From Thermoanaerobaculia bacterium (GTDB taxonomy: Bacteria > Acidobacteriota > Thermoanaerobaculia > UBA5066), in the NCBI GenBank assembly GCA_963719225.1, contig CAVRAY010000001.1, positions 3,232,001-3,296,000 of the forward strand: DNA of 64,000 bases, given 5' to 3'. The position numbers and the translations under genes were made by a program. The notes beneath the pieces are model-generated. The model worked only from the letters and a program-made list of their open reading frames with translations, did not search any database and was not told the origin of the DNA. Positions 13,675-62,217 of this stretch are shown here, piece after piece. Position 1 is the stretch's first letter; each line of letters begins with the position of its first letter.

Positions 13675-14970
13675 TCAAGGCGTCGAGCGCGCCGAGGTCC
13701 AGTCGTAGTCGCGAATGAACTTCGCGCGCCACGCGACGATCGCGACGACCAGGAGAGTGCCGACGCCGCCGGCGACGACCGCGACCGAGGCTCCGAGCGC
13801 CACCGACGCGAAGAGGCTCGCGACGAACCCGGCCTCCAGCTCGCCGAGCTGCGGGCCGCCCATGAAGAAGATCATGTTCACGCCCGTCATGCGCCCGCGA
13901 AGCTCGTCGGGCGTGACGAGCTGCCGCACGGTCTGGCGCACGACGGTGGAGATCGTGTCCGAGAGCCCGACGAGGGCGAGCGCAATGAACGTGAGGGTGA
14001 AGCTCCGCGACAGGCCGAAGACGATCGTCGTGACGCCGTATGCCGCGACCGACCACAGGAAGACCTTCCCCTGCCGGCGCGGCAAGCCGCGCACGGAGCT
14101 CCAGACGGAGCCCACGAGCGCCCCGATTCCGGGAGCGGCGCGCAGCCAGCCGTATCCGGCGGGTCCCGCGTTCAGGATCTGGTCGGCGAAGATCGGGAGA
14201 AGCGACATCGATCCCGCGAAGAACGTGGCGAAGAAATCGAGCGTCATCGTCCAGACGAGGATCGGCGTCGTGAAGACGAAGCGCAGTCCTTCCTTGAGAG
14301 AGGCGATGGGGTGCTCGGGCGCTCCTTCCGCGCGGACGACCTCGCCCGACGTCTTCAGCGTGACGAGCGTCAGGAGAACGCCGAAGAAGGACGCCGCGTT
14401 GAGGAAGTAGATGAGCGCCAGGCCCCCGGCGTGGGCGTGCGACGGCAGCCCGGATCCGGCTCCCGCGGCGCCGGCGAGGACGAGGCCCGTGAGCGCGGGG
14501 CCTCCGATCGACGCGAGCTGAAACGTCGACAGCATGATCGAGAGCGCGCCGGGGAGGTCGTCCCTCGGGACGAGACGCGGAATGAGGGACTGGCGGGACG
14601 GGTTGTCGAAAGCGCCGGCGGCGGAGGTGAGCGCCGTCAGGAGATAGACGAGGCCGACGGAATCGCGCCCGAGGAGCGTCGCGGCTCCGAGCGCGAGCGC
14701 GACGAGCGTCATCGTGGACTGCGTGACGAGGAGGACCCGGCGCCGGTCGCGCCGGTCCGCCACGAGGCCGCCGACGAGCGAAAGGACGACGATCGGCACG
14801 ACGCGCACGAGGCCCACGAAACCGAGCGCGAGCGGCGAGCGCGTGAGGACCCAGACGTGCCAGTCGATCGCCGTGTTCTGCATTTGCGTGCCGACGAGCG
14901 ACACGAGCATCGCGACGGCCATGCGGCGGAAGTCGCGGTGCCGGAAGGCCTCGTAGGGTTTCGGCTTCAG
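13675..14970 (-). CDS. MFS transporter (DHA3/EntS-like)
   Basis: About 12 hydrophobic segments, GGLVADRRDRRR motif A, PDELRGR; probable CTG start overlapping the upstream stop. Confidence 0.85.
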   Translation of the reverse strand: MKPKPYEAFRHRDFRRMAVAMLVSLVGTQMQNTAIDWHVWVLTRSPLALGFVGLVRVVPIVVLSLVGGLVADRRDRRRVLLVTQSTMTLVALALGAATLLGRDSVGLVYLLTALTSAAGAFDNPSRQSLIPRLVPRDDLPGALSIMLSTFQLASIGGPALTGLVLAGAAGAGSGLPSHAHAGGLALIYFLNAASFFGVLLTLVTLKTSGEVVRAEGAPEHPIASLKEGLRFVFTTPILVWTMTLDFFATFFAGSMSLLPIFADQILNAGPAGYGWLRAAPGIGALVGSVWSSVRGLPRRQGKVFLWSVAAYGVTTIVFGLSRSFTLTFIALALVGLSDTISTVVRQTVRQLVTPDELRGRMTGVNMIFFMGGPQLGELEAGFVASLFASVALGASVAVVAGGVGTLLVVAIVAWRAKFIRDYDWTSARSTP

Positions 14971-15830
14971 ATCTTCTTCAGCCAGTCCGACACGTCGGCG
15001 ACCATGCGGTCCCAGGAGGGGGACACGAAGAGCGTCTTCTGGTACTGCGTGGGGTCGTATGGCGTGCGCGACGCGACCTCGAGGTCCAGCGGGACGAGGT
15101 TCGGGTGCCTTTGGAGGTCGCCGAGCTCGCCGTACGAGGACAGGAGGCCCGCGCCCCACGCCTTGAGGTTCCCCTTCTCCTCGACGACACCGAACTCCAC
15201 GGTGTACCAGTACGCGAGCTCGAGGCGCTTCATCGTGGACTCGCCCGCACGCCGCGCGGCCTCGCCGAAGAGGCGGGACAGTCGGACGATGTCGGGATGG
15301 AAGAGGCCGGCGGCGTGGCCCACGAGCTCGTGGACGACGTCCGGCTCGGGCGTGTAGAGAGGCACGCTGTGATGCCTCACGTACTGCGTCGCGAGGAACA
15401 CGTCCTCGGCCATCGCGCCGAGGAAACCGCGCCCCGAGATGAGGCCTGCAACGGGGATCATCCGGAAGCCGGAGCCCGCCCGCAGCGTCTCGCTCACGTC
15501 CGCGAGCTGCGGCACCTTCGTGCGGTCGAGGGAAAGCGCGTCAGCGCTCTCCCTCCACGGGCTCGCCGCGAGGTGCTCGTGGAGGGGGCCGAGCTTCTCC
15601 CACACCGCGCGCCAGACCGCTTCCTCTTCGGGCGTGTACGAGACGCGCGGCAAGGGGTCGCCTTCGCGGTACGCGAGCGCCATGCGGGCGATCTCGTTGC
15701 GGCGCACGCGGTAAACCGCGTCGCGGAAGCCCGGATGGTCCGGATCGAGCGGCACGAGCTCGCCGGCGCCCGCGGCAATCGGCTTCGACGGAGCGGGGGC
15801 GTAGCGCGTCACGGCCGCATCTTCTCCCAA
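14967..15830 (-). CDS. phhA: Phenylalanine 4-monooxygenase (pterin-dependent aromatic amino acid hydroxylase)
   Basis: TQYVRH, YTPEPDVVHELVGH, YWYTVEFG, GAGLLSSYGE. Confidence 0.9.
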   Translation of the reverse strand: MGEDAAVTRYAPAPSKPIAAGAGELVPLDPDHPGFRDAVYRVRRNEIARMALAYREGDPLPRVSYTPEEEAVWRAVWEKLGPLHEHLAASPWRESADALSLDRTKVPQLADVSETLRAGSGFRMIPVAGLISGRGFLGAMAEDVFLATQYVRHHSVPLYTPEPDVVHELVGHAAGLFHPDIVRLSRLFGEAARRAGESTMKRLELAYWYTVEFGVVEEKGNLKAWGAGLLSSYGELGDLQRHPNLVPLDLEVASRTPYDPTQYQKTLFVSPSWDRMVADVSDWLKKI

Positions 15831-15868
15831 CGCGGATCTTACCGCCCGCGGTCAGGCGCCAGGAACTC

Positions 15869-16633
15869 TCACGGCGAGATCGTGACCGTCATCCCCGCGT
15901 GGACGAACGTGTTGAACTGTTGAAGGATGGGAAAGCCGACAAGCGCCCCGCCAATGAGCTGCCCGAGCGGGCCCTGCGGAGACGTCGTCAGTTCGAGGTC
16001 CGCCGTACCGATCCTGATGTCCGGCACCTGCGTTTCCATCTTGACGGCACCGGCGCCTGCCTGCCGCCACCAGTTGGCAGCGAACGAGCCCGACGGAGCG
16101 AGCGACTCGACCACCGTCCCGTCGAGCGAGAGACGTGGATTTCCAGGACGCCGTACCGTCACTTCGAAGGCAGCCGCCCCTCCTGTCGATTCGAAGTCGA
16201 CGTCGATCGTCTCGACGTGCTGGGCCGGGATGCCGAAGTCCTGGAGCGCGTGGGCCAGCCTCGCGTCCGAAGTCTCGTACCAGAAGGTGTAGTTGTTGAT
16301 GTCTCCGGTGAAGTCGGGCGGGACGATCACCGCGCCGATCTGTACGATCGCGCCGGGCTCGGCCTTGTGGCCGTCCACCGATATGCCGCTGCAACGGGAC
16401 GTGCGGACGACGAGAGGCGTCACCGGCTGGCCTTGTCCGGCGAGAACAAACCCGGAAGGAACGAGAGCCTGTGCGCCGTCGGTCGCGACCAGGGCCACGC
16501 CGATGCTCTCGATGCAACCGGTGAACTCGACGGTGAGCGTGGACGGCGGCTTGCCTTTCGACGGCGCGGCCTCCAGGCCAGACGTTGCCAAACCGATGAG
16601 GATGCAGACGGCCGGGACTTTCGAGAGGATCAT
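15869..16633 (-). CDS. Secreted hypothetical protein
   Basis: AGGAGG RBS, signal peptide, coding-like composition. Confidence 0.65.
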   Translation of the reverse strand: MILSKVPAVCILIGLATSGLEAAPSKGKPPSTLTVEFTGCIESIGVALVATDGAQALVPSGFVLAGQGQPVTPLVVRTSRCSGISVDGHKAEPGAIVQIGAVIVPPDFTGDINNYTFWYETSDARLAHALQDFGIPAQHVETIDVDFESTGGAAAFEVTVRRPGNPRLSLDGTVVESLAPSGSFAANWWRQAGAGAVKMETQVPDIRIGTADLELTTSPQGPLGQLIGGALVGFPILQQFNTFVHAGMTVTISP

Positions 16634-55265: not shown

Positions 55266-57080
55266 TCAACGCAGGACGGTCGTCGTGTCCGAACGGACGT
55301 GCGCGACACCGATCGCCAGCTCGACCGGCTGCGAGGTCGGAACGTGCAGGATTCCGGCTCGCGGGAAGTCGAAGCCGGTGCCTGCCGCATTCACGCGGAC
55401 GGCGCGGACTTCATAGTCACCGGGCTCGAGCACCTGAGGCGCGAAGAGGACCTCGCCGGCGGCGGCGGCGCTCGTTCCCGCCGCTTCCGCGAGGAGCATG
55501 CCGGGGATCGGGATTCCCCCGCGCCAGAACTGAAGCTCCGCGAGCGATTTCACCTTGCCGTCCGCGTCTCGAACCGTGAGGCCGTAGAACGGCGCGGGAG
55601 GCGCGAGCGCGATGGGCGCGGCGCAGACCTCGAGGCCCTCGCATCCGCCGACGGCGGGAAACCGGGACGCCGACAAGCTGAATCCCGGCGCATACACCCA
55701 GAACGGCAGGCCGGCCCACTCTTCGCCTGGAACCTTCAGCTCCCCTTTCGGGTCCGCCGTGCCGATTTTCCTGAAGGAGATGAAACCTCGAGTCGAGTTC
55801 AGGGCGTCCAGGCCGGCAATCGTCGCCCCCGGGAGCGGCGCGCCGCGCGAATCGGTCACGCGAACGAGGATTTCGTCCGACTTGTCGAGCCAGATGGTCT
55901 CCTCGTGCGCGTCTTCCTGGGCGAGATCGAGCCGGAACGGTTCCCTTGCGGCCAGCCCTTTGCAGCGCGGCACGAGCTCGACGGATCCAGCCGAGAGGCC
56001 GTCGAACGCGATCCTGCCCTTCTCGTCCGACTTGAATGTCTGGTAACGCCCGCCCCCACCCGTCATCAGAAGTTTCGCGCTAACGCTGCAGTCCGCGACG
56101 GGGGACTCCGTGCGCCGCTCCCGGAGGACGACGTCCACCGAGCCGACGTGGATGACGATGTCGACGGGATCGAGGCTCGGACCGCGCTCGAACCAGTCGC
56201 CCCGCCCGGCCGGCTTTTCGGACTCGGCCATCAGCGCAACCCGGCGTCCCGGCGGGAGAAGGAGCGAGATCTCGAATGAGCCGTCCGGCGACGAATGCGT
56301 CGTTCCGATCCCCGAATCCTGCGGCGTTCCACGTTCGAAGAGGAATCCCGCCGAGATCGTCGCCTCGACGGGCGTGTCGTCCTTCAGGTGGACCCGGCCT
56401 CGAAACGTCCGCCTCAGAACCTGCACAGTGGTCCGCGCGACATCCGGATCCTCGCTCCGGCCCGAGACGTTGACGAATTCCGAAGCTCCCCGGACTCCCC
56501 ACAGCTCCAGGAATGCCCGGTAGCGCCCTGGCGCAAGCGGGCCGACGCGCGCGAACGAGTCTTCTCCGACGTCGCGCCGGATCATCCGGGTCTTAATCCT
56601 CGCCGGATCGCAGCGATCCTTCTCGGTCTCACAGCGCAGAAGCTGGATGGCTGGGCGCGCGTCCTCCGGCTTGACGTCGAGGCCATCCACCGCAATCTCG
56701 AGCTTCTGGAGTGGAGCGAGGAAGACGTCTCGCCGCCCGGCCTCGAACCCTTCGGGAAGGTTCAGCGTCGTCGACCTAAGTCCCATGGCTTCGACGACCA
56801 GAGTCGTTGCCTTGCGCGGGAGCGCACCAAGCCGGAGGATCCCGTCCGGCCCGGTCGCCGGAGCTTTCTTGCCGAGCAGTTCTCGCGGAGCAGGCTCCGG
56901 GCTCGATTTGGCGCCCGCCGGCGCCGCGAGCGTCGCCCCTTCGATCGGCTTCCGGTCGCTTCGCACGAGGACCCGGAGGATGACTTCGGCGTGCGCATCC
57001 TCCGGGTCTCCGGCTCGAACCTGATTCGCCAGAACCAGGTGAAGCACGAGGACGGTGGCGCGCGGAAGGGTGAACCTCAT
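55266..57080 (-). CDS. Secreted protein with carboxypeptidase-regulatory-like (transthyretin-like Ig) repeats
   Basis: Signal peptide; KPIEGAT, TGPDG, LAPGRY, SDEKG, VTDSRGAPLPGA motifs. Confidence 0.65.
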   Translation of the reverse strand: MRFTLPRATVLVLHLVLANQVRAGDPEDAHAEVILRVLVRSDRKPIEGATLAAPAGAKSSPEPAPRELLGKKAPATGPDGILRLGALPRKATTLVVEAMGLRSTTLNLPEGFEAGRRDVFLAPLQKLEIAVDGLDVKPEDARPAIQLLRCETEKDRCDPARIKTRMIRRDVGEDSFARVGPLAPGRYRAFLELWGVRGASEFVNVSGRSEDPDVARTTVQVLRRTFRGRVHLKDDTPVEATISAGFLFERGTPQDSGIGTTHSSPDGSFEISLLLPPGRRVALMAESEKPAGRGDWFERGPSLDPVDIVIHVGSVDVVLRERRTESPVADCSVSAKLLMTGGGGRYQTFKSDEKGRIAFDGLSAGSVELVPRCKGLAAREPFRLDLAQEDAHEETIWLDKSDEILVRVTDSRGAPLPGATIAGLDALNSTRGFISFRKIGTADPKGELKVPGEEWAGLPFWVYAPGFSLSASRFPAVGGCEGLEVCAAPIALAPPAPFYGLTVRDADGKVKSLAELQFWRGGIPIPGMLLAEAAGTSAAAAGEVLFAPQVLEPGDYEVRAVRVNAAGTGFDFPRAGILHVPTSQPVELAIGVAHVRSDTTTVLR

Positions 57081-57187
57081 ACGCCCTCACGACTCTATCG
57101 GACAGGCAGCCCGGATGTCGAAGGCCGCTTCGTACCTGAGATCGAGTCTCTATAATGGCGCGGCCCCCGGTCGAGAAAGGAGTAGCG

Positions 57188-58858
57188 ATGAAACTGTCTC
57201 GTCCTCACCTGCGCCTCTCCATGGCCGCCGTCGCAATCTGTCTCTTTCCTCTCGCCTTGCCCGCCACTGCGCAGACGAAGGTCGGCGATACGAAGGACGC
57301 CTGCGACGCATCCCACGTCGTGAAGTTCCAGGCAATCGATGGAACCGCGACCGTGAAGGCCCCTGGCTCGAAGTCCAAGGATCTTCCGGGCCTGACGCGG
57401 GAGATCACGTGGTACTGCGGGGGAACCCGGGAACGGAGCGCGAACGACGAGCAATTCGACCACGTGAAGCTCTTACGCGCGAAGAACGGCGCGATGCAGT
57501 GGACCTTTTTCCGCAATGCGAAGCCAGCCGGGCCGACGGGCTCGGAAGTCCCTCCGGACAAGGACGGCACCTCGGGCCTCACGCGGGTCGGTGAGAGCAA
57601 CGACGCCTGCGACGCCTCGCACAAGATCGCGTTCACGGCGAAGAACGGGGAGCGCGTGCGGCTCGCGGCGGGAAAAACGGAGCTCGTCGAGCTCGAGGGC
57701 CTGACCCGCGAGATCAAGTGGAAGTGCGACGACAGCTCGGAGCGCGTCGCGAATCCGAACGAGTTCAACTGGGTGCAGGTCGAGCGGGCCGGAAACGGCG
57801 CGATCCACTGGGTCTTCTACCGGTCTCCCTCGATGCTGCATCCCGGAAACCGGAAGGCCGGCCCCGCCGAGAACGACGCGAGCTTCGGCGACTTCATCCA
57901 CAACATCCCGGGCGACGTGACCGTGGCGCTCGCCGGGACGAAGAAGGTCTTCCCCAATCCCGGCGTCCTCAAGAAGCAGATCGACACGACGTGGGACGGC
58001 CTGAGAGACACGATCAAGGCGAAGGTCGAGGAGAAAGCCACCGATCCGAAGGTCAGGCTGAACTCCGTAACCCCCGCGTCCTCGGCGACGTCCGATCTGA
58101 GGATCGCGAAGACCGCCACGGGCGTCACCCTGAAGTACGTCGTCCATGGGAACAAGGCCACTGGCACGTATATCCAGAAGGACCCCGGCGTGGACGTGAA
58201 CTTCGTCGCGACGTTCGACGTCGAGGTCGCGCTTCCCTTCGCGGGCTCGCAGCGCCTTTCCAAGCTGAAGGTGGCCGACGCGCGGGCGTTCGCACACCAC
58301 GTCGAGATCGCGGGCGACGTCCCGGGCGACGCCCTCATGGTGGGGTTCGCCAAGTCGCGGGTCCGCGCGGTGGAGACCCGGCTCGACGCCGTCTCGTCGG
58401 ACATCACGAAGGAAGTGAACGATTCGCTCGCCGGAATCCTCGCGCTGCTGAAAGCCGTCATCCCCGCGAACTTCACGCTCGCGTCGATCGGCATCGACAA
58501 GGCGGGCACGCTGCTCGTGTGCGCGAAATCGTCGGCGAGCCAGTCCTGCACCTTCCCCGCCTCCTCCGCGCGGCCCGACTCCCGGGCCGTGCTGGGCCAT
58601 TCCGCCGATCAGTGCAGCGCGGGGAAGATCTGGCTGTGGGACGCGGAACGAGGCCGGTTCGTCAGCGTCGCCAAGGGCGCGAAGGACGTCGTCGTCGAGC
58701 TGGGCAACCGCCGCTTCGAGTGGTTCTGCGGCGGCGACGCGCAGGCGGACGAGAACAACGACGAGTGGGCGAGCGGCGATCCGGGGACGTTCGCGGTACG
58801 CGCGTCCCGCGATGCTTCCAGCCGCGAGATCAAGTGGGAGTTTCTCTCCTGGAAGTGA
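57188..58858 (+). CDS. Secreted protein with three ~75-aa two-Cys repeat domains
   Basis: AAAGGAG RBS; signal peptide; two close repeats VG...DACDASH...LTREI.W.C...ER.AN...RA.NGA..W.F.R and a diverged third copy at the C-terminus. Confidence 0.75.
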   Translation: MKLSRPHLRLSMAAVAICLFPLALPATAQTKVGDTKDACDASHVVKFQAIDGTATVKAPGSKSKDLPGLTREITWYCGGTRERSANDEQFDHVKLLRAKNGAMQWTFFRNAKPAGPTGSEVPPDKDGTSGLTRVGESNDACDASHKIAFTAKNGERVRLAAGKTELVELEGLTREIKWKCDDSSERVANPNEFNWVQVERAGNGAIHWVFYRSPSMLHPGNRKAGPAENDASFGDFIHNIPGDVTVALAGTKKVFPNPGVLKKQIDTTWDGLRDTIKAKVEEKATDPKVRLNSVTPASSATSDLRIAKTATGVTLKYVVHGNKATGTYIQKDPGVDVNFVATFDVEVALPFAGSQRLSKLKVADARAFAHHVEIAGDVPGDALMVGFAKSRVRAVETRLDAVSSDITKEVNDSLAGILALLKAVIPANFTLASIGIDKAGTLLVCAKSSASQSCTFPASSARPDSRAVLGHSADQCSAGKIWLWDAERGRFVSVAKGAKDVVVELGNRRFEWFCGGDAQADENNDEWASGDPGTFAVRASRDASSREIKWEFLSWK

Positions 58859-58859
58859 C
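58769..58859 (+). repeat. Direct repeat copy 1 (last 30 codons of the upstream CDS)
   Basis: 82/91 nt identical to 59433-59523. Confidence 0.9.
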
Positions 58860-58904
58860 TTGTTCCGCCGTGGCTTCGAGCCGAAGGCGGCGTAGGGCGA
58901 AACT

Positions 58905-59339
58905 TCAGACGCTGACCCTTTGAATGAATTCACAGGTCAGGGTCACGGTCTCCATTGGCGACGTCCCTCCAGGATTGCCCTTGAGGACGCCGACGTGGAT
59001 CCGGGTCGGCCAGGCATTTTCCAGATAGTACCGGGCCACCGGCTTGCCGTCGGTGCGGTGGAGCACCAGGAAGCAGTTCTTCTTGGCCGCCGTCGAAGCT
59101 CCGCTCGCGGCCAGCTGCCAGGCGATGTGGCGGTCGTCGTTGCTCCGGGGACGAATGAACTTGAGAATGGTCGAGGTTCGAACCCCGGAGAATCGATTGA
59201 TGAAAACCGATTCGCTCTCAACGCTTGAAATGTAATCGACGGAGCCGGCCTGGGTGCTGATGCTTGCAAGTTGCGTGAAGGAGGCGATCTCGCGTCCGTC
59301 CTCGATCAGGCTGAATCTTGCGGCGGCGATGGGCGGCAT
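58905..59339 (-). CDS. Phage/eCIS tail tube protein (T4 gp19/Afp1-like), orphan
   Basis: IASF..L..I; W....G....KKNC.LVL...DGKPVARYYLENAWP.RI.V..LK.....METVTLTCE; TATACT and AGGAG upstream. Confidence 0.78.
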   Translation of the reverse strand: MPPIAAARFSLIEDGREIASFTQLASISTQAGSVDYISSVESESVFINRFSGVRTSTILKFIRPRSNDDRHIAWQLAASGASTAAKKNCFLVLHRTDGKPVARYYLENAWPTRIHVGVLKGNPGGTSPMETVTLTCEFIQRVSV

Positions 59340-59432
59340 GCTCCAACGCTCCTACGAAAAAGTATAGCCGTGATTCAAGGGCGTCGCGAGTGCGTGGGAA
59401 TGGACCCCGGCCAGGGTTTGCGTGCGAACGGC

Positions 59433-59523
59433 GCGAGCGGAGATCCGGGGACGTTCGTGGTGCGCGTGTCTCGCGATGCTTCCGGCCGCGAGATCCGGTG
59501 GGAGTTTCTTTCCTGGAAGTGAC
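59433..59523 (+). repeat. Direct repeat copy 2 (orphan 3' gene fragment ASGDPGTF...WEFLSWK*)
   Basis: 82/91 nt identical to 58769-58859. Confidence 0.9.
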
Positions 59524-59531
59524 CGCCTTGC

Positions 59532-61814
59532 TCAGTCCTCGCCGTTCTCGTCCTTCGCCGCGCGTTGAAGCGCCTGCTTGAAGCGCGGATCGCCGTGCAG
59601 CGAGTCCAGATCGTCGTCGTGCCGGATCTGATTCGGTGAGTTGTAGCCCGCGTCGATCGCCTGGAAGAGGCGCTCGAAGGCCTTGTCCTTCTCCTCGAGA
59701 CGCGCATGGGCGCACGCGAGGTTGTAGAGCGTCGCCGGTTTGCGATAGCCGAGCTCGAGAGCGCGCGTGAACGCCGTGAGCGCCTGCTCGGGCCGCTCCG
59801 CGAGAAGCTGTGCGTATCCGAGGTTGTAGTGCGCGCGGCCGCTCTGGGGATGCGCCTTCGCGTACGCCACGTAGTGCGGCACCTCCTCGCGCCAGGCCGA
59901 GCGGCGCCGGAAGAGGCGCGAGACGCCGGTCTCGAAGTTCGACATCGAGAGGGCGAGGTCCTCGGCCTTCTTTCGGAGCTGCGCGAAGCGGGGGTCGTCG
60001 TGCAGCGTGTCGAGATCGTCGTCGCGCCCGATGAGGCCCGGGTCGTCGAAGCCCGCCTCGAGGGAGGCGTCGAGCGCGTCGAGCGCCTGCGGCACCTTGC
60101 CGGCCCGCGCGAGCGCGCACGCGGCGTTGTACGTCGAGGCGCCCGTGCGATATCCGAGCGACGCCGCCGTGCGGAACGCCTTCTCGGAGAGGTCGAGCTT
60201 CTCGGCGTTGAGGAGCTCCCTTCCGGCTTCGTACCAGCGGGCTCCGTTCTTCGAGCCCTCGGCCGAGAGCTTTTCGAAGCGCTTGACGGCGCGCACCGTA
60301 TCGGCCGTCTTCCCCTCCGCTTTCGCGGCGCGCGCCACCTTCTTCAGCTCGGCGAAGCGCGGGTCCCGGCGCAGGGAGTCGAGATCGTCGTCCCTCCCGA
60401 GGTAGGACGCGACGTCGAAGCCTAGCTCCATCGCCTTGTTCAGCCACGTGAACGCTTCGTCCTTTCGCCCGGCCAGCGCATAGGAGCAGGCGGCGTTGTA
60501 TGCGGCGGTGTCTTCCCGATAGCCCAGCTCCGCCGCTTTGCCGTAAGCCTCCGCCGCCTCGAGGAAGTTATCGTCGTGATAGAGCTCCCTGGCGTGCGCG
60601 TATGCCGCCGATCCGCTCTTGTCTTTGCGGTTGGCCGCGAAGACGACGACGGGGACGGTCTTCACGGCCGCCGCCTTCACCTTCGGGCAAGGGGCCTCCG
60701 TCGGAGCCGCCACGGCCGCGACGAGAGGCTCGTCGCCCTCCGGCAGGGCCGCCATCGCGGGCCGGGCGACACCGGGCACGGCCGCGGCGAGCACGAGCGC
60801 GGCGGCGATTCCAGCGGCCGCGAGCGAGGCCGTCAGGATCCGCGAGGGCGCCCGGCGGCGCCGTTCGGGATCGAGAATGGCGCGCACGCGCTTTTCGAGA
60901 TCCGAGGGGCGCGCCATCGCGAGAACGGGCATCTCCTCCGCAGCTCCGAGCCCCTTCACGATGCCGACGAGATGCGAGGCGTAGTCGGATGCCCGCGTCC
61001 CGTTTCCGAGCACGAGATCGTCCGACGCCTCCTCGGCGCTCCGCTTGAGATGCCGGGCGACGACGTGAACCAGCGGATGGAACCAGTAGGCCGCGGTCGT
61101 GACCTCGGCGACGAGAAGCGCGCCCAGGTCGCGCCGTGAAACGTGCGCGAGCTCGTGCAGGAGGACGACGCGCAGCCGCTCGCGCGGCCACGTGCGCGCG
61201 GACTCCGGCAGCACGAGAACGGGACGAAAGAAATTCGCCGTCATCGGCACGAGTGCTTCCGGCGAGAGGAGAACCGGGACGGTCCGGTTCAGGCCGAGCC
61301 GCGCGGACGCCTCCACCGCGAGAGCCTCGAGGTCCGAATCTCCGGCGGGCCGTGCGTTCCGGATGAGCGTCCGGGCCCGATGGAATCCGACGGCCAGGGC
61401 GGCGAGCGGCACGAGGCCGCCGAGGAGCCAGAGAAACGCCGCGACCTGCGCGAATCCGAGATCGGGGGTCGTGAAGGCCTTCCGGGGACTCTGCGTGAAA
61501 CCGGGCTCCTCGAGGGGAGGCACCTGTACGCCGACGCGCCCGGAGAAGCCCGCGAGGGCGACCGGGACCTCGGATCGCTCGGGAAGCGCGGCGCGCGTCT
61601 CGGGCAGGGGCCTCGGGGCGGGGGAAAGCAGCGGGATCTCCCAGCGCGGCAGGACGAGCCCGAGCACCGGCACGGCGAGCGCGAGAGCGAGACCGAGGAG
61701 CGCGACGAGATGGCGGCTCGCCGCCGAGGCGCGCGCGAGCGCCCGGAGGGCGAACGCCGTCACGAGGAGAAGGAGCGTGGCCTTCACGAGTGAGGCGGCG
61801 AGGAACGCGTTCAT
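59532..61814 (-). CDS. BlaR1/MecR1-type M56 peptidase with extracytoplasmic TPR-like repeats
   Basis: LLHELAHVSRRD, YWFHPL, EEASDD; three YN.AC..A...DDDLD.L..DPRF repeats. Confidence 0.88.
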   Translation of the reverse strand: MNAFLAASLVKATLLLLVTAFALRALARASAASRHLVALLGLALALAVPVLGLVLPRWEIPLLSPAPRPLPETRAALPERSEVPVALAGFSGRVGVQVPPLEEPGFTQSPRKAFTTPDLGFAQVAAFLWLLGGLVPLAALAVGFHRARTLIRNARPAGDSDLEALAVEASARLGLNRTVPVLLSPEALVPMTANFFRPVLVLPESARTWPRERLRVVLLHELAHVSRRDLGALLVAEVTTAAYWFHPLVHVVARHLKRSAEEASDDLVLGNGTRASDYASHLVGIVKGLGAAEEMPVLAMARPSDLEKRVRAILDPERRRRAPSRILTASLAAAGIAAALVLAAAVPGVARPAMAALPEGDEPLVAAVAAPTEAPCPKVKAAAVKTVPVVVFAANRKDKSGSAAYAHARELYHDDNFLEAAEAYGKAAELGYREDTAAYNAACSYALAGRKDEAFTWLNKAMELGFDVASYLGRDDDLDSLRRDPRFAELKKVARAAKAEGKTADTVRAVKRFEKLSAEGSKNGARWYEAGRELLNAEKLDLSEKAFRTAASLGYRTGASTYNAACALARAGKVPQALDALDASLEAGFDDPGLIGRDDDLDTLHDDPRFAQLRKKAEDLALSMSNFETGVSRLFRRRSAWREEVPHYVAYAKAHPQSGRAHYNLGYAQLLAERPEQALTAFTRALELGYRKPATLYNLACAHARLEEKDKAFERLFQAIDAGYNSPNQIRHDDDLDSLHGDPRFKQALQRAAKDENGED

Positions 61815-61815
61815 G

Positions 61816-62217
61816 TCAGCGGCCCTCCTTGCGGGCGTCGGCGATGAGACGGGAAAGGCGCTCGAGCTCTTCCCCGCTCAGCGGGTTCCTGGATTCCAGG
61901 AGCATCGCGGCCACGGCCTTTTCCGTGGAGCCGTCGAAGAACGTCTGGAGAAGGTTCTGAAGCGCCGATCGACGCGCCTTGTTCCTCGGCACGATCGGGC
62001 GGTAGACGTAACGCCCGTTTTCGAGGACGTGCGTGAGATGGCCCTTGTTCTCGAGAACGCGCAGCATCGCGCGGACCGCGGAATAGCCCGGAGGATCCGG
62101 AAGCCTCTCGAGCACCTCGCCGGCCGCGGCCCGGCCCTCGCGGTACAGGATGTCCATGATCTGGCGCTCGCGCCGGGAGAGGTGGAGCTGGTCGGGCGGG
62201 TTGATCGTCTTGGGCAT
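61816..62217 (-). CDS. BlaI/MecI/CopY family repressor
   Basis: LSRRERQIMDILY, YSAVRAMLRVLENKGHL, FFDGS. Confidence 0.92.
   Translation of the reverse strand: MPKTINPPDQLHLSRRERQIMDILYREGRAAAGEVLERLPDPPGYSAVRAMLRVLENKGHLTHVLENGRYVYRPIVPRNKARRSALQNLLQTFFDGSTEKAVAAMLLESRNPLSGEELERLSRLIADARKEGR

Follow-up and report, generated by a model that had tools for sequence, protein, structure and literature searches.

A stand-alone tube gene of the gp19/eCIS type in a Thermoanaerobaculia genome lies between two copies of the 3' end of a secreted-protein gene, an arrangement that is likely to stem from a one-off, homology-assisted gain and not from a cassette or a switch. In a fuller reading, to which we give slightly better than even chances, the gene was gained once from a related strain by a RecA-type event, and its product comes from a sheath-less lineage of tube proteins that would form Hcp-like rings with a role other than injection. 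The repeat is then an ordinary recombination scar, useful for dating and explaining the gain of one gene.

The window, meaning the whole stretch of DNA that was analysed, comprises 64,000 nt of the Thermoanaerobaculia bacterium assembly GCA_963719225.1 (CAVRAY010000001.1, positions 3,232,001-3,296,000, forward strand). Seventy of its ORFs were scanned with Pfam, and six-frame family searches covered the whole of its genome (G000; 4.75 Mb, 68% GC, two contigs, 97% complete). The features of the locus, with those shared with G011, a congener of the same genus that is 74% complete, are as follows.

55266..57080, minus strand: left flank, gene with a carboxypeptidase-regulatory-like domain (Pfam; conserved in G011)
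57155..58858, plus strand: secreted protein gene, with a signal-peptide-like start, two Cys-containing beta repeats, a predicted TULIP/BPI-fold domain and a third, C-terminal repeat
58769..58859, plus strand: repeat copy 1, the last 29 codons of the secreted gene with its stop and 1 nt
58859..58904, no strand: 46-nt spacer separating the convergent stop codons, with a hairpin of -18 kcal/mol and no U-run
58905..59339, minus strand: stand-alone gp19/eCIS-type tube gene, 144 aa, without signal peptide (PF06841 above cut-off)
59349..59366, minus strand: AGGAG ribosome-binding site and TATACT -10-like hexamer of the tube gene (from sequence)
59400..59522, plus strand: possible 40-codon ORF reading copy 2 in frame, with no clear SD
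59425..59432, plus strand: possible 8 nt of extra junction homology (blastn extends the G011 match to 59425)
59433..59523, plus strand: repeat copy 2, the secreted gene's 3' end in displaced position, with the flank of the empty site after it
59532..61814, minus strand: right flank, BlaR1-like M56 peptidase/TPR gene (Pfam; conserved in G011)

The duplicated gene end

The original prediction had described a repeat with nine mismatches in 91 nt and 573 bp between the copies, and re-measurement returned the same values for 58769-58859 and 59433-59523 (90% identity). The mismatches comprise four synonymous single changes and five nucleotides within four conservative codon changes (A/V, A/V, S/G and K/R), and comparison at the codon level agrees with their description as mostly synonymous or conservative. 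The longest run of identity between the copies is 16 nt. Only the tube gene, on the opposite strand, occupies the intervening DNA, as had been proposed, and both its ORF and its PF06841 match were confirmed; the short ORF at 59400..59522 is likely to be incidental. An assembly artefact is unlikely, since the copies differ in a codon-biased manner and copy 2 runs into the flank of the empty site.

The tube gene had also been credited with its own -10 and SD. The AGGAG motif (59353-59349, 9 nt 5' of the ATG) and the -10-like TATACT (59366-59361) are present, but a full promoter does not stand, as no -35 is visible and a sigma-70 promoter scan returned 0 promoters. No terminator was called in the spacer (58859..58904). 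The Pfam scans of the 70 window ORFs bear out the claim that sheath, baseplate, integrase and transposase genes are missing from the window; in the six-frame search of the genome the nearest tyrosine integrase (PF00589) lies ~370 kb away, with none in the window.

The secreted gene was left intact by the insertion. Its product has 567 aa from the ATG at 57155, or 556 aa from that at 57188, and has 42 homologs in the searched length range and no Pfam match. In the structural model (pLDDT 79.9), three Cys-containing beta repeats are arranged around a TULIP/BPI-fold domain. Aligned with VIA-align, residues 235-447 of the model match latherin at Z 9.3 (166 residues aligned, rmsd 3.3) and five TULIP/BPI family members at Z 8.0-9.3, and the top 8 rows are all members of the family; Foldseek on the whole protein gave no hit at E 0.001. 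By this model, the central domain has the TULIP/BPI fold, a long helix enclosed by a curved beta sheet, and resembles that of lipid-binding proteins such as latherin, SPLUNC1 and Der f 7, from which the protein differs in being bacterial and secreted, in its three Cys-containing beta repeats and in its lack of a Pfam match. No functional link between the secreted protein and the tube was seen, and none of 15 metagenome tube loci read by eye has a neighbour resembling the secreted gene.

The empty site and the probable arrival of the insert

The secreted gene was found in one of 30 relatives, G011, which is syntenic on both sides of the locus and carries the gene at 90.5% identity (91% for the protein ortholog). 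There, a single gene 3' end is joined directly to the M56 gene. The suggestion to look for an empty site in relatives thus led to presence/absence variation at this position, seen in one genome that is 74% complete. The flank 3' of the G011 stop codon matches the flank of copy 2 and not that of copy 1; therefore, copy 2 marks the old position of the gene end and G000 holds 664 bp more, made up of the tube gene insert and a second copy of the last 30 codons of its neighbour. The additional match at 59425..59432 contains one substitution and one inserted base and could, at such a length, be due to chance. Across 17 loci of the genus, several unrelated kinds of DNA follow the M56 gene, which makes this a generally variable site. 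As a query, the window tube protein matched 0 of 28 congeners. Seven of 174 further genomes in the order had matches, at only 23-28%, making gain a simpler polarity than loss. A 27-nt apparent remnant of the gene end in another congener (G007) was rejected, as it belongs to the end of a different gene.

Copy 1, copy 2 and the G011 end lie at roughly equal distances from one another: they have 3, 5 and 4 private sites, respectively, and at one site all three differ. Translated, their majority sequence gives the C-terminus of an ortholog of the secreted protein, P0057 (94% identity). The 5-6 private nucleotides of copy 2 change two residues, both conservatively; its stop is intact and it has no indel. 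Neutral simulation of its coding lean gave P 0.03-0.055 with six changes and 0.10-0.14 with five, a weak hint that copy 2 diverged as coding DNA and that two coding alleles were brought together, instead of one copy having decayed. In contigs from two other studies (X3 and X8) the end of the secreted gene is followed by a third flank, so alleles of this gene end exist in other contexts.

Separately, the flank after the gene in X3 and X8 shows, by eye, a faint likeness to that of copy 1.

The search for DNA reads pointed to ten runs with shares of 0.05-0.07, and six different runs were examined; no RNA run was listed. In these six runs, from which this strain is absent, no joint across the insert and no long piece of the tube gene were found, at a depth that proves nothing. 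In X4, a 161-nt contig links the gene end to the M56 flank; it stops short upstream and fits either the empty site or copy 2.

How did the insert enter? The original suggestion of an insertion by homologous recombination fits these observations, with the displaced 3' end left behind. The donor would have carried the 3' end of the secreted gene beside the tube gene; no such donor was seen. The piece could have entered as a circularised fragment through one crossover or, alternatively, by a homologous anchor combined with an illegitimate join. Either route would yield the order gene end, insert, gene end, with the old flank after copy 2, and the two are not separable here. PMC3240628 describes, for E. 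coli, single crossovers of circularised fragments that leave gene-end duplications of 109-950 bp around the insert, and joins of the anchor-plus-illegitimate type are described for competent species in PMC5361080. The event would by now be nearly frozen, since at most 16 nt in a row are identical between the copies.

An illegitimate insertion of foreign DNA accompanied by a long local duplication, or an ancestral filled state followed by loss in G011 through recombination between the copies, in both cases with later drift, is unlikely but deserves the most attention among the other routes. It would account for the 4 sites at which copies 1 and 2 agree against G011. However, copy 2 has kept its frame and stop with a synonymous lean, and G011 is not a simple hybrid of a 5' copy 1 and a 3' copy 2, as its matches to the two interleave; moreover, the tube query finds no congener.

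Quite unlikely is a larger integrative element that took the 3' end of the gene as its attachment site, replaced it and was later deleted down to a single gene. The anatomy is that of E. coli e14 at icd and icdC, the copies have diverged and the old flank follows copy 2, all as expected of such a remnant. Against it, the window holds no integrase or other element gene, and the target gene occurs in few genomes (1 of 30 relatives; among 400 genomes of the class, a single match, weak and containing a stop) and would therefore make a poor attachment site. Neither 50,697 phage records nor viral contigs contain relatives of the tube, and a PHROGs search gave no match to the tube protein.

The proposal of an att-like or excisable cassette, or of a switch for the C-terminus of the secreted protein, is very unlikely: as the direct repeats share the frame of the gene end, recombination between them would indeed remove the tube gene cleanly, but no recombinase lies near, exchange would alter only four conservative residues, identity runs for 16 nt at most and no joint across the insert turned up, albeit in the six runs that lack this strain. 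Further copies of the repeat did not appear either. The 4.75-Mb genome holds one strong match to the repeat as its second copy (E 1.7e-29), the next being 49 nt at 80% (E 1.6e-4), and no third copy. A genome-wide scan listed 109 local direct repeats of 45-400 nt, of which 7 touch a gene end as placed by a crude gene caller; apart from the window locus, these fall in one repeat array, one repeat-rich surface-protein region and a pair of paralogs, and thus do not make up a family of like cassettes in this genome. A repeat longer than 28 nt flanks none of the 18 testable loci among 19 others (18 tube-like, one sheath). By eye, no core of an integron attC was recognised, and the repeat is coding DNA.

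The tube protein and its sheath-less relatives

The PF06841 test suggested for the tube ORF (58905-59339, minus strand) gave 35.6 bits against a gathering cut-off of 28.2, and, together with the structural model and sequence matches to the eCIS tubes 8bl4, 7adz and 9r9h, it supports a gp19/eCIS tube fold. A Foldseek search with the model (pLDDT 67.6) ranked CIS tubes (E 3.9e-7) and Hcp first, at prob 1.00. The protein falls below the NCBIfam cut-offs for CIS1 (34.1 against 220) and TIGR02241 (28.8 against 62.4), and it is the only PF06841 match in G000. Its reading frame is open for 148 codons from stop to stop, leaving no room for a signal peptide. Identity to sheath-linked actinobacterial tubes is ~44%; 34 of 49 eCIS-conserved columns are kept, as is the full 40-residue hairpin. 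In 30 of 30 sheath-linked tubes the hairpin has 39-40 residues; among sheath-less tubes its length varies from 13 to 46. For the window protein, the net charge is +4, compared with -5 to +1 in sheath-linked tubes (median -2, n=30). Two near-identical relatives are known, one of full length at 97% identity (P0001) and one with an altered, shorter C-terminus (P0053). A prediction of the three-copy complex scored 0.00 in a setting without folded controls, and it was used neither for nor against assembly.

Seventy-seven homolog loci were fetched and 70 classified, the seven with short matches being left out. A sheath gene is present at 31 of the 70, always within 360 bp, and absent at 39 in the available DNA, which for 10 of these means short flanks. 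Signal-peptide-like starts, called by a hydrophobicity rule and not by SignalP, occur at 13 of the 39 sheath-less loci and at none of the 31 sheath-linked ones, although the rows are not independent of one another, and a single clade contains 16 of the sheath-linked ones. A particle that is assembled in the cytoplasm would not be expected to have such starts, seen at 13 loci. Among 25 genomes with a sheath-less copy, PF04984 was found in 3, PF05943 in 2 and neither in 20, a count in which all three eCIS controls were detected and for which genome completeness is not given. In a tree of 69 rows (L078 and L093 dropped), the window protein, on a long branch (0.53), falls in a nine-row clade without adjacent sheath (support 99/92), and an AU test rejects one shared origin of the sheath-less rows (p 1.7e-7): sheath-less tubes have several origins. 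The five nearest loci (~50% identity) sit among metabolic and regulatory genes and have dN/dS of 0.32-0.80, below 1 in 10 of 10 pairs, at dS 0.15-0.43; the secreted gene, with dN/dS 0.18, lies much lower than this sister clade. No description of stand-alone gp19 tubes as a class was found in the open-access literature.

Could the tube belong to a machine encoded elsewhere in the genome? The search for an eCIS locus outside the window recovered only a lone sheath gene and T6SS parts. At ~270 kb from the window tube gene, the sheath gene (C1:3559875-3560945, 356 aa) adjoins tRNA-Thr, and no further tail gene was seen over 60 kb. Baseplate_J (PF04865) was not found in G000 at its 97% completeness, and the gp25 and spike matches fall within a T6SS region ~130 kb upstream; hence, an eCIS cannot be built from these parts. 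Searches with Pvc16_N and CIS_tube matched nothing anywhere, controls included, and are uninformative. The main TssC of the T6SS region is in five pieces in different frames, through either decay or long-read errors, and the region has two ORFs of its own that look Hcp-like from their sequence features.

The window protein is likely to act without an injection role, a view suggested by its nearest relatives, which also lack the rest of the machine. It is likewise likely to form Hcp-like rings in that role. The protein would remain cytoplasmic, as a hexameric ring or a short tube whose basic surface might bind a small partner; it would serve to bind or scaffold a target other than injected cargo, and the gene would be kept under weak selection. 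The original idea that a stand-alone tube had been repurposed holds in part: stand-alone tubes do recur widely, and repurposing is plausible for the sheath-less clade, at clade level only.

Alternatively, the gene may be a slowly decaying relic with no role in this host, which is doubtful but a serious possibility. The long branch, the loss of 15 of 49 conserved columns, the altered C-terminus of P0053, dN/dS values of up to 0.80, well above the 0.18 of the secreted gene, and the lack of a -35 would all suit a relic, whereas the full-length ORF with its SD, the full-length P0001 at 97% identity and a sister clade intact over dS 0.15-0.43 with dN/dS below 1 in 10 of 10 pairs would not. If the sheath-less tubes prove to be relics, the annotation of a lone 'phage tail protein' should not imply a prophage or an eCIS.

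That the tube partners the lone sheath in trans, or serves the T6SS as an extra Hcp, is improbable. In its favour, G000 alone among 29 genomes of the genus has PF04984. Other PF06841-like genes that lack a sheath occur in five congeners, all of which also have PF05943, compared with 14 of 28 overall; in two (G003 and G007) the PF06841 match lies within ~1.3 kb of the PF05943 gene. These congener proteins may have a T6SS-accessory role. The congeners are kin and not independent, however, and the window protein as query does not detect these proteins. Moreover, of the 25 genomes that have a sheath-less tube of the window kind, just 2 contain PF05943, Baseplate_J is missing from G000 and its T6SS has a TssC in pieces and presumably two Hcp-like ORFs of its own.

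Taken more broadly, we tentatively propose, as a reading that is possible rather than probable, that CIS inner-tube genes became separated from their machines in several independent events and survive as widespread single-gene tube or ring proteins, some with export signals and others cytoplasmic with a full hairpin and a basic surface. Homology-assisted recombination would spread them as units of a single gene; the window locus would be one such arrival with a readable scar. If a ring or tube with a job of its own is confirmed, this would amount to recurrent re-use of a part of the phage tail.

Comparison with known systems

The locus is not an eCIS, a prophage or a displacement array. An eCIS locus has been defined by at least 10 clustered core genes, including one eCIS-specific gene, in a survey (PMC8213781); the window has one tube gene and no other core family in the 70 ORFs scanned, and G000 lacks the combination of sheath and baseplate (Afp11/Baseplate_J). 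By its ten-core-gene rule, the survey leaves out single tube genes. The window tube shares fold, family and hairpin length with the eCIS tubes Afp1, Pvc1 and Cis1 (PF06841; 9gts/8bl4, 7adz and Afp 6rao) and differs from them in having no adjacent sheath, baseplate or spike, in scoring below the TIGR02241 and CIS1 cut-offs and in its charge of +4 against a median of -2. With T6SS Hcp it has in common the tube fold (Foldseek) and the state of a single tube gene away from its machine. Orphan hcp genes are likewise single tube genes that stand apart from their machine. Unlike Hcp, the window tube belongs to PF06841 and not to the Hcp family, and 23 of 25 homolog genomes have no T6SS sheath match.

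Prophage e14 of E. coli is flanked by icd and the C-terminal fragment icdC (PMC13626634). The likeness lies in an intact gene, an insert and a displaced, diverged 3' fragment. However, e14 is a 15-kb prophage that excises, whereas the window insert measures 573 bp, has no site-specific recombinase of its own and lies at a rare target gene. In polymorphic C-terminal displacement arrays (of the Rhs, CDI or T6SS effector type), the alternative C-terminal domains are unrelated to one another and come with immunity genes; here the ends differ by four conservative residues and the insert is a tube gene. Single-crossover and homology-facilitated illegitimate recombination share with the window locus foreign DNA beside a homologous anchor and displaced old ends downstream. 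The systems in which these routes are described include a toxin-immunity array, absent here, and the route at the window is read from the anatomy of the locus. The duplicated scar is a known kind of event.

Lone sheath gene and sheath-less tube homologs

Among 29 genomes of the genus, the sole match to the eCIS-type sheath family PF04984 is a lone gene of the genome that holds the window (G000):

G000:C1:3559875-3560945 (L010, ~14875-15946), (-), eCIS-type sheath gene, 356 aa, PF04984 match

The gene has a GC3 of 0.74 and lies beside tRNA-Thr(cgt) and a small toxin-antitoxin-like gene pair, presumably HicAB-like; no flanking repeat was found at it. A nearby 605-aa ORF contains three tandem repeats of ~219 nt (83-89%; L010:13365-14057).

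Some tube homologs lacking a sheath gene in the examined DNA begin, by sequence, with a Sec- or Tat-like N-terminus (loci L064, L067-L071, L079-L081, L083, L084, L033, L034; L020). They come from six named phyla, and in many of them the polymerisation hairpin is shortened. Two Gemmatimonadota homologs carry an additional N-terminal part of 170-180 residues. In family f2 (L129-L135), the lone gp19 gene usually adjoins one conserved ~150-aa ORF, without a sheath, and the two may form a two-gene module.

Flanking genes and a repeat array

The secreted-type product of window 57155-58858 is predicted to combine a TULIP/BPI fold with three Cys-containing beta repeats. The two repeats nearest its N-terminus are also present in a 765-codon frame at another place in G000, and the homologs P0101 and P0102 have them together with a transthyretin-like domain. 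From the modelled fold, the protein would represent a bacterial family, so far uncharacterised, whose members are secreted and join a TULIP/BPI fold to three such repeats.

G000:C1:317087-317710, (-), paralog of the secreted gene
Window 59532-62217, (-), BlaI/BlaR1-like gene pair
G000:C2:545188-563461 and G000:C1:10093-13521, ~105-nt repeat array, 13 copies (two partial), 91-100%

The M56 protein of the BlaI/BlaR1-like pair bears three TPR-like repeats, and the DNA following its gene differs widely within the genus. The ~105-nt copies alternate with short ORFs resembling immunity and toxin-antitoxin genes, and the array looks like an integron-like or immunity cassette array.

T6SS genes and adjoining gp19-type proteins

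G000:C1:3140700-3168000, T6SS region: gp25, VgrG, split TssC, two Hcp-like ORFs
L018, G003:C4:1290171-1290548, PF06841-matching gene, PF05943 gene within ~1.3 kb
L019, G007:C2:298890-299270, PF06841-matching gene, PF05943 gene within ~1.3 kb

The main TssC of the G000 region is in five pieces in different frames; the two ORFs are taken to be Hcp-like from their sequence features. In the congeners G003 and G007, the L018 and L019 proteins (304-341 aa) match PF06841 and are gp19-type proteins adjoining T6SS genes, the PF05943 genes being TssC-like.
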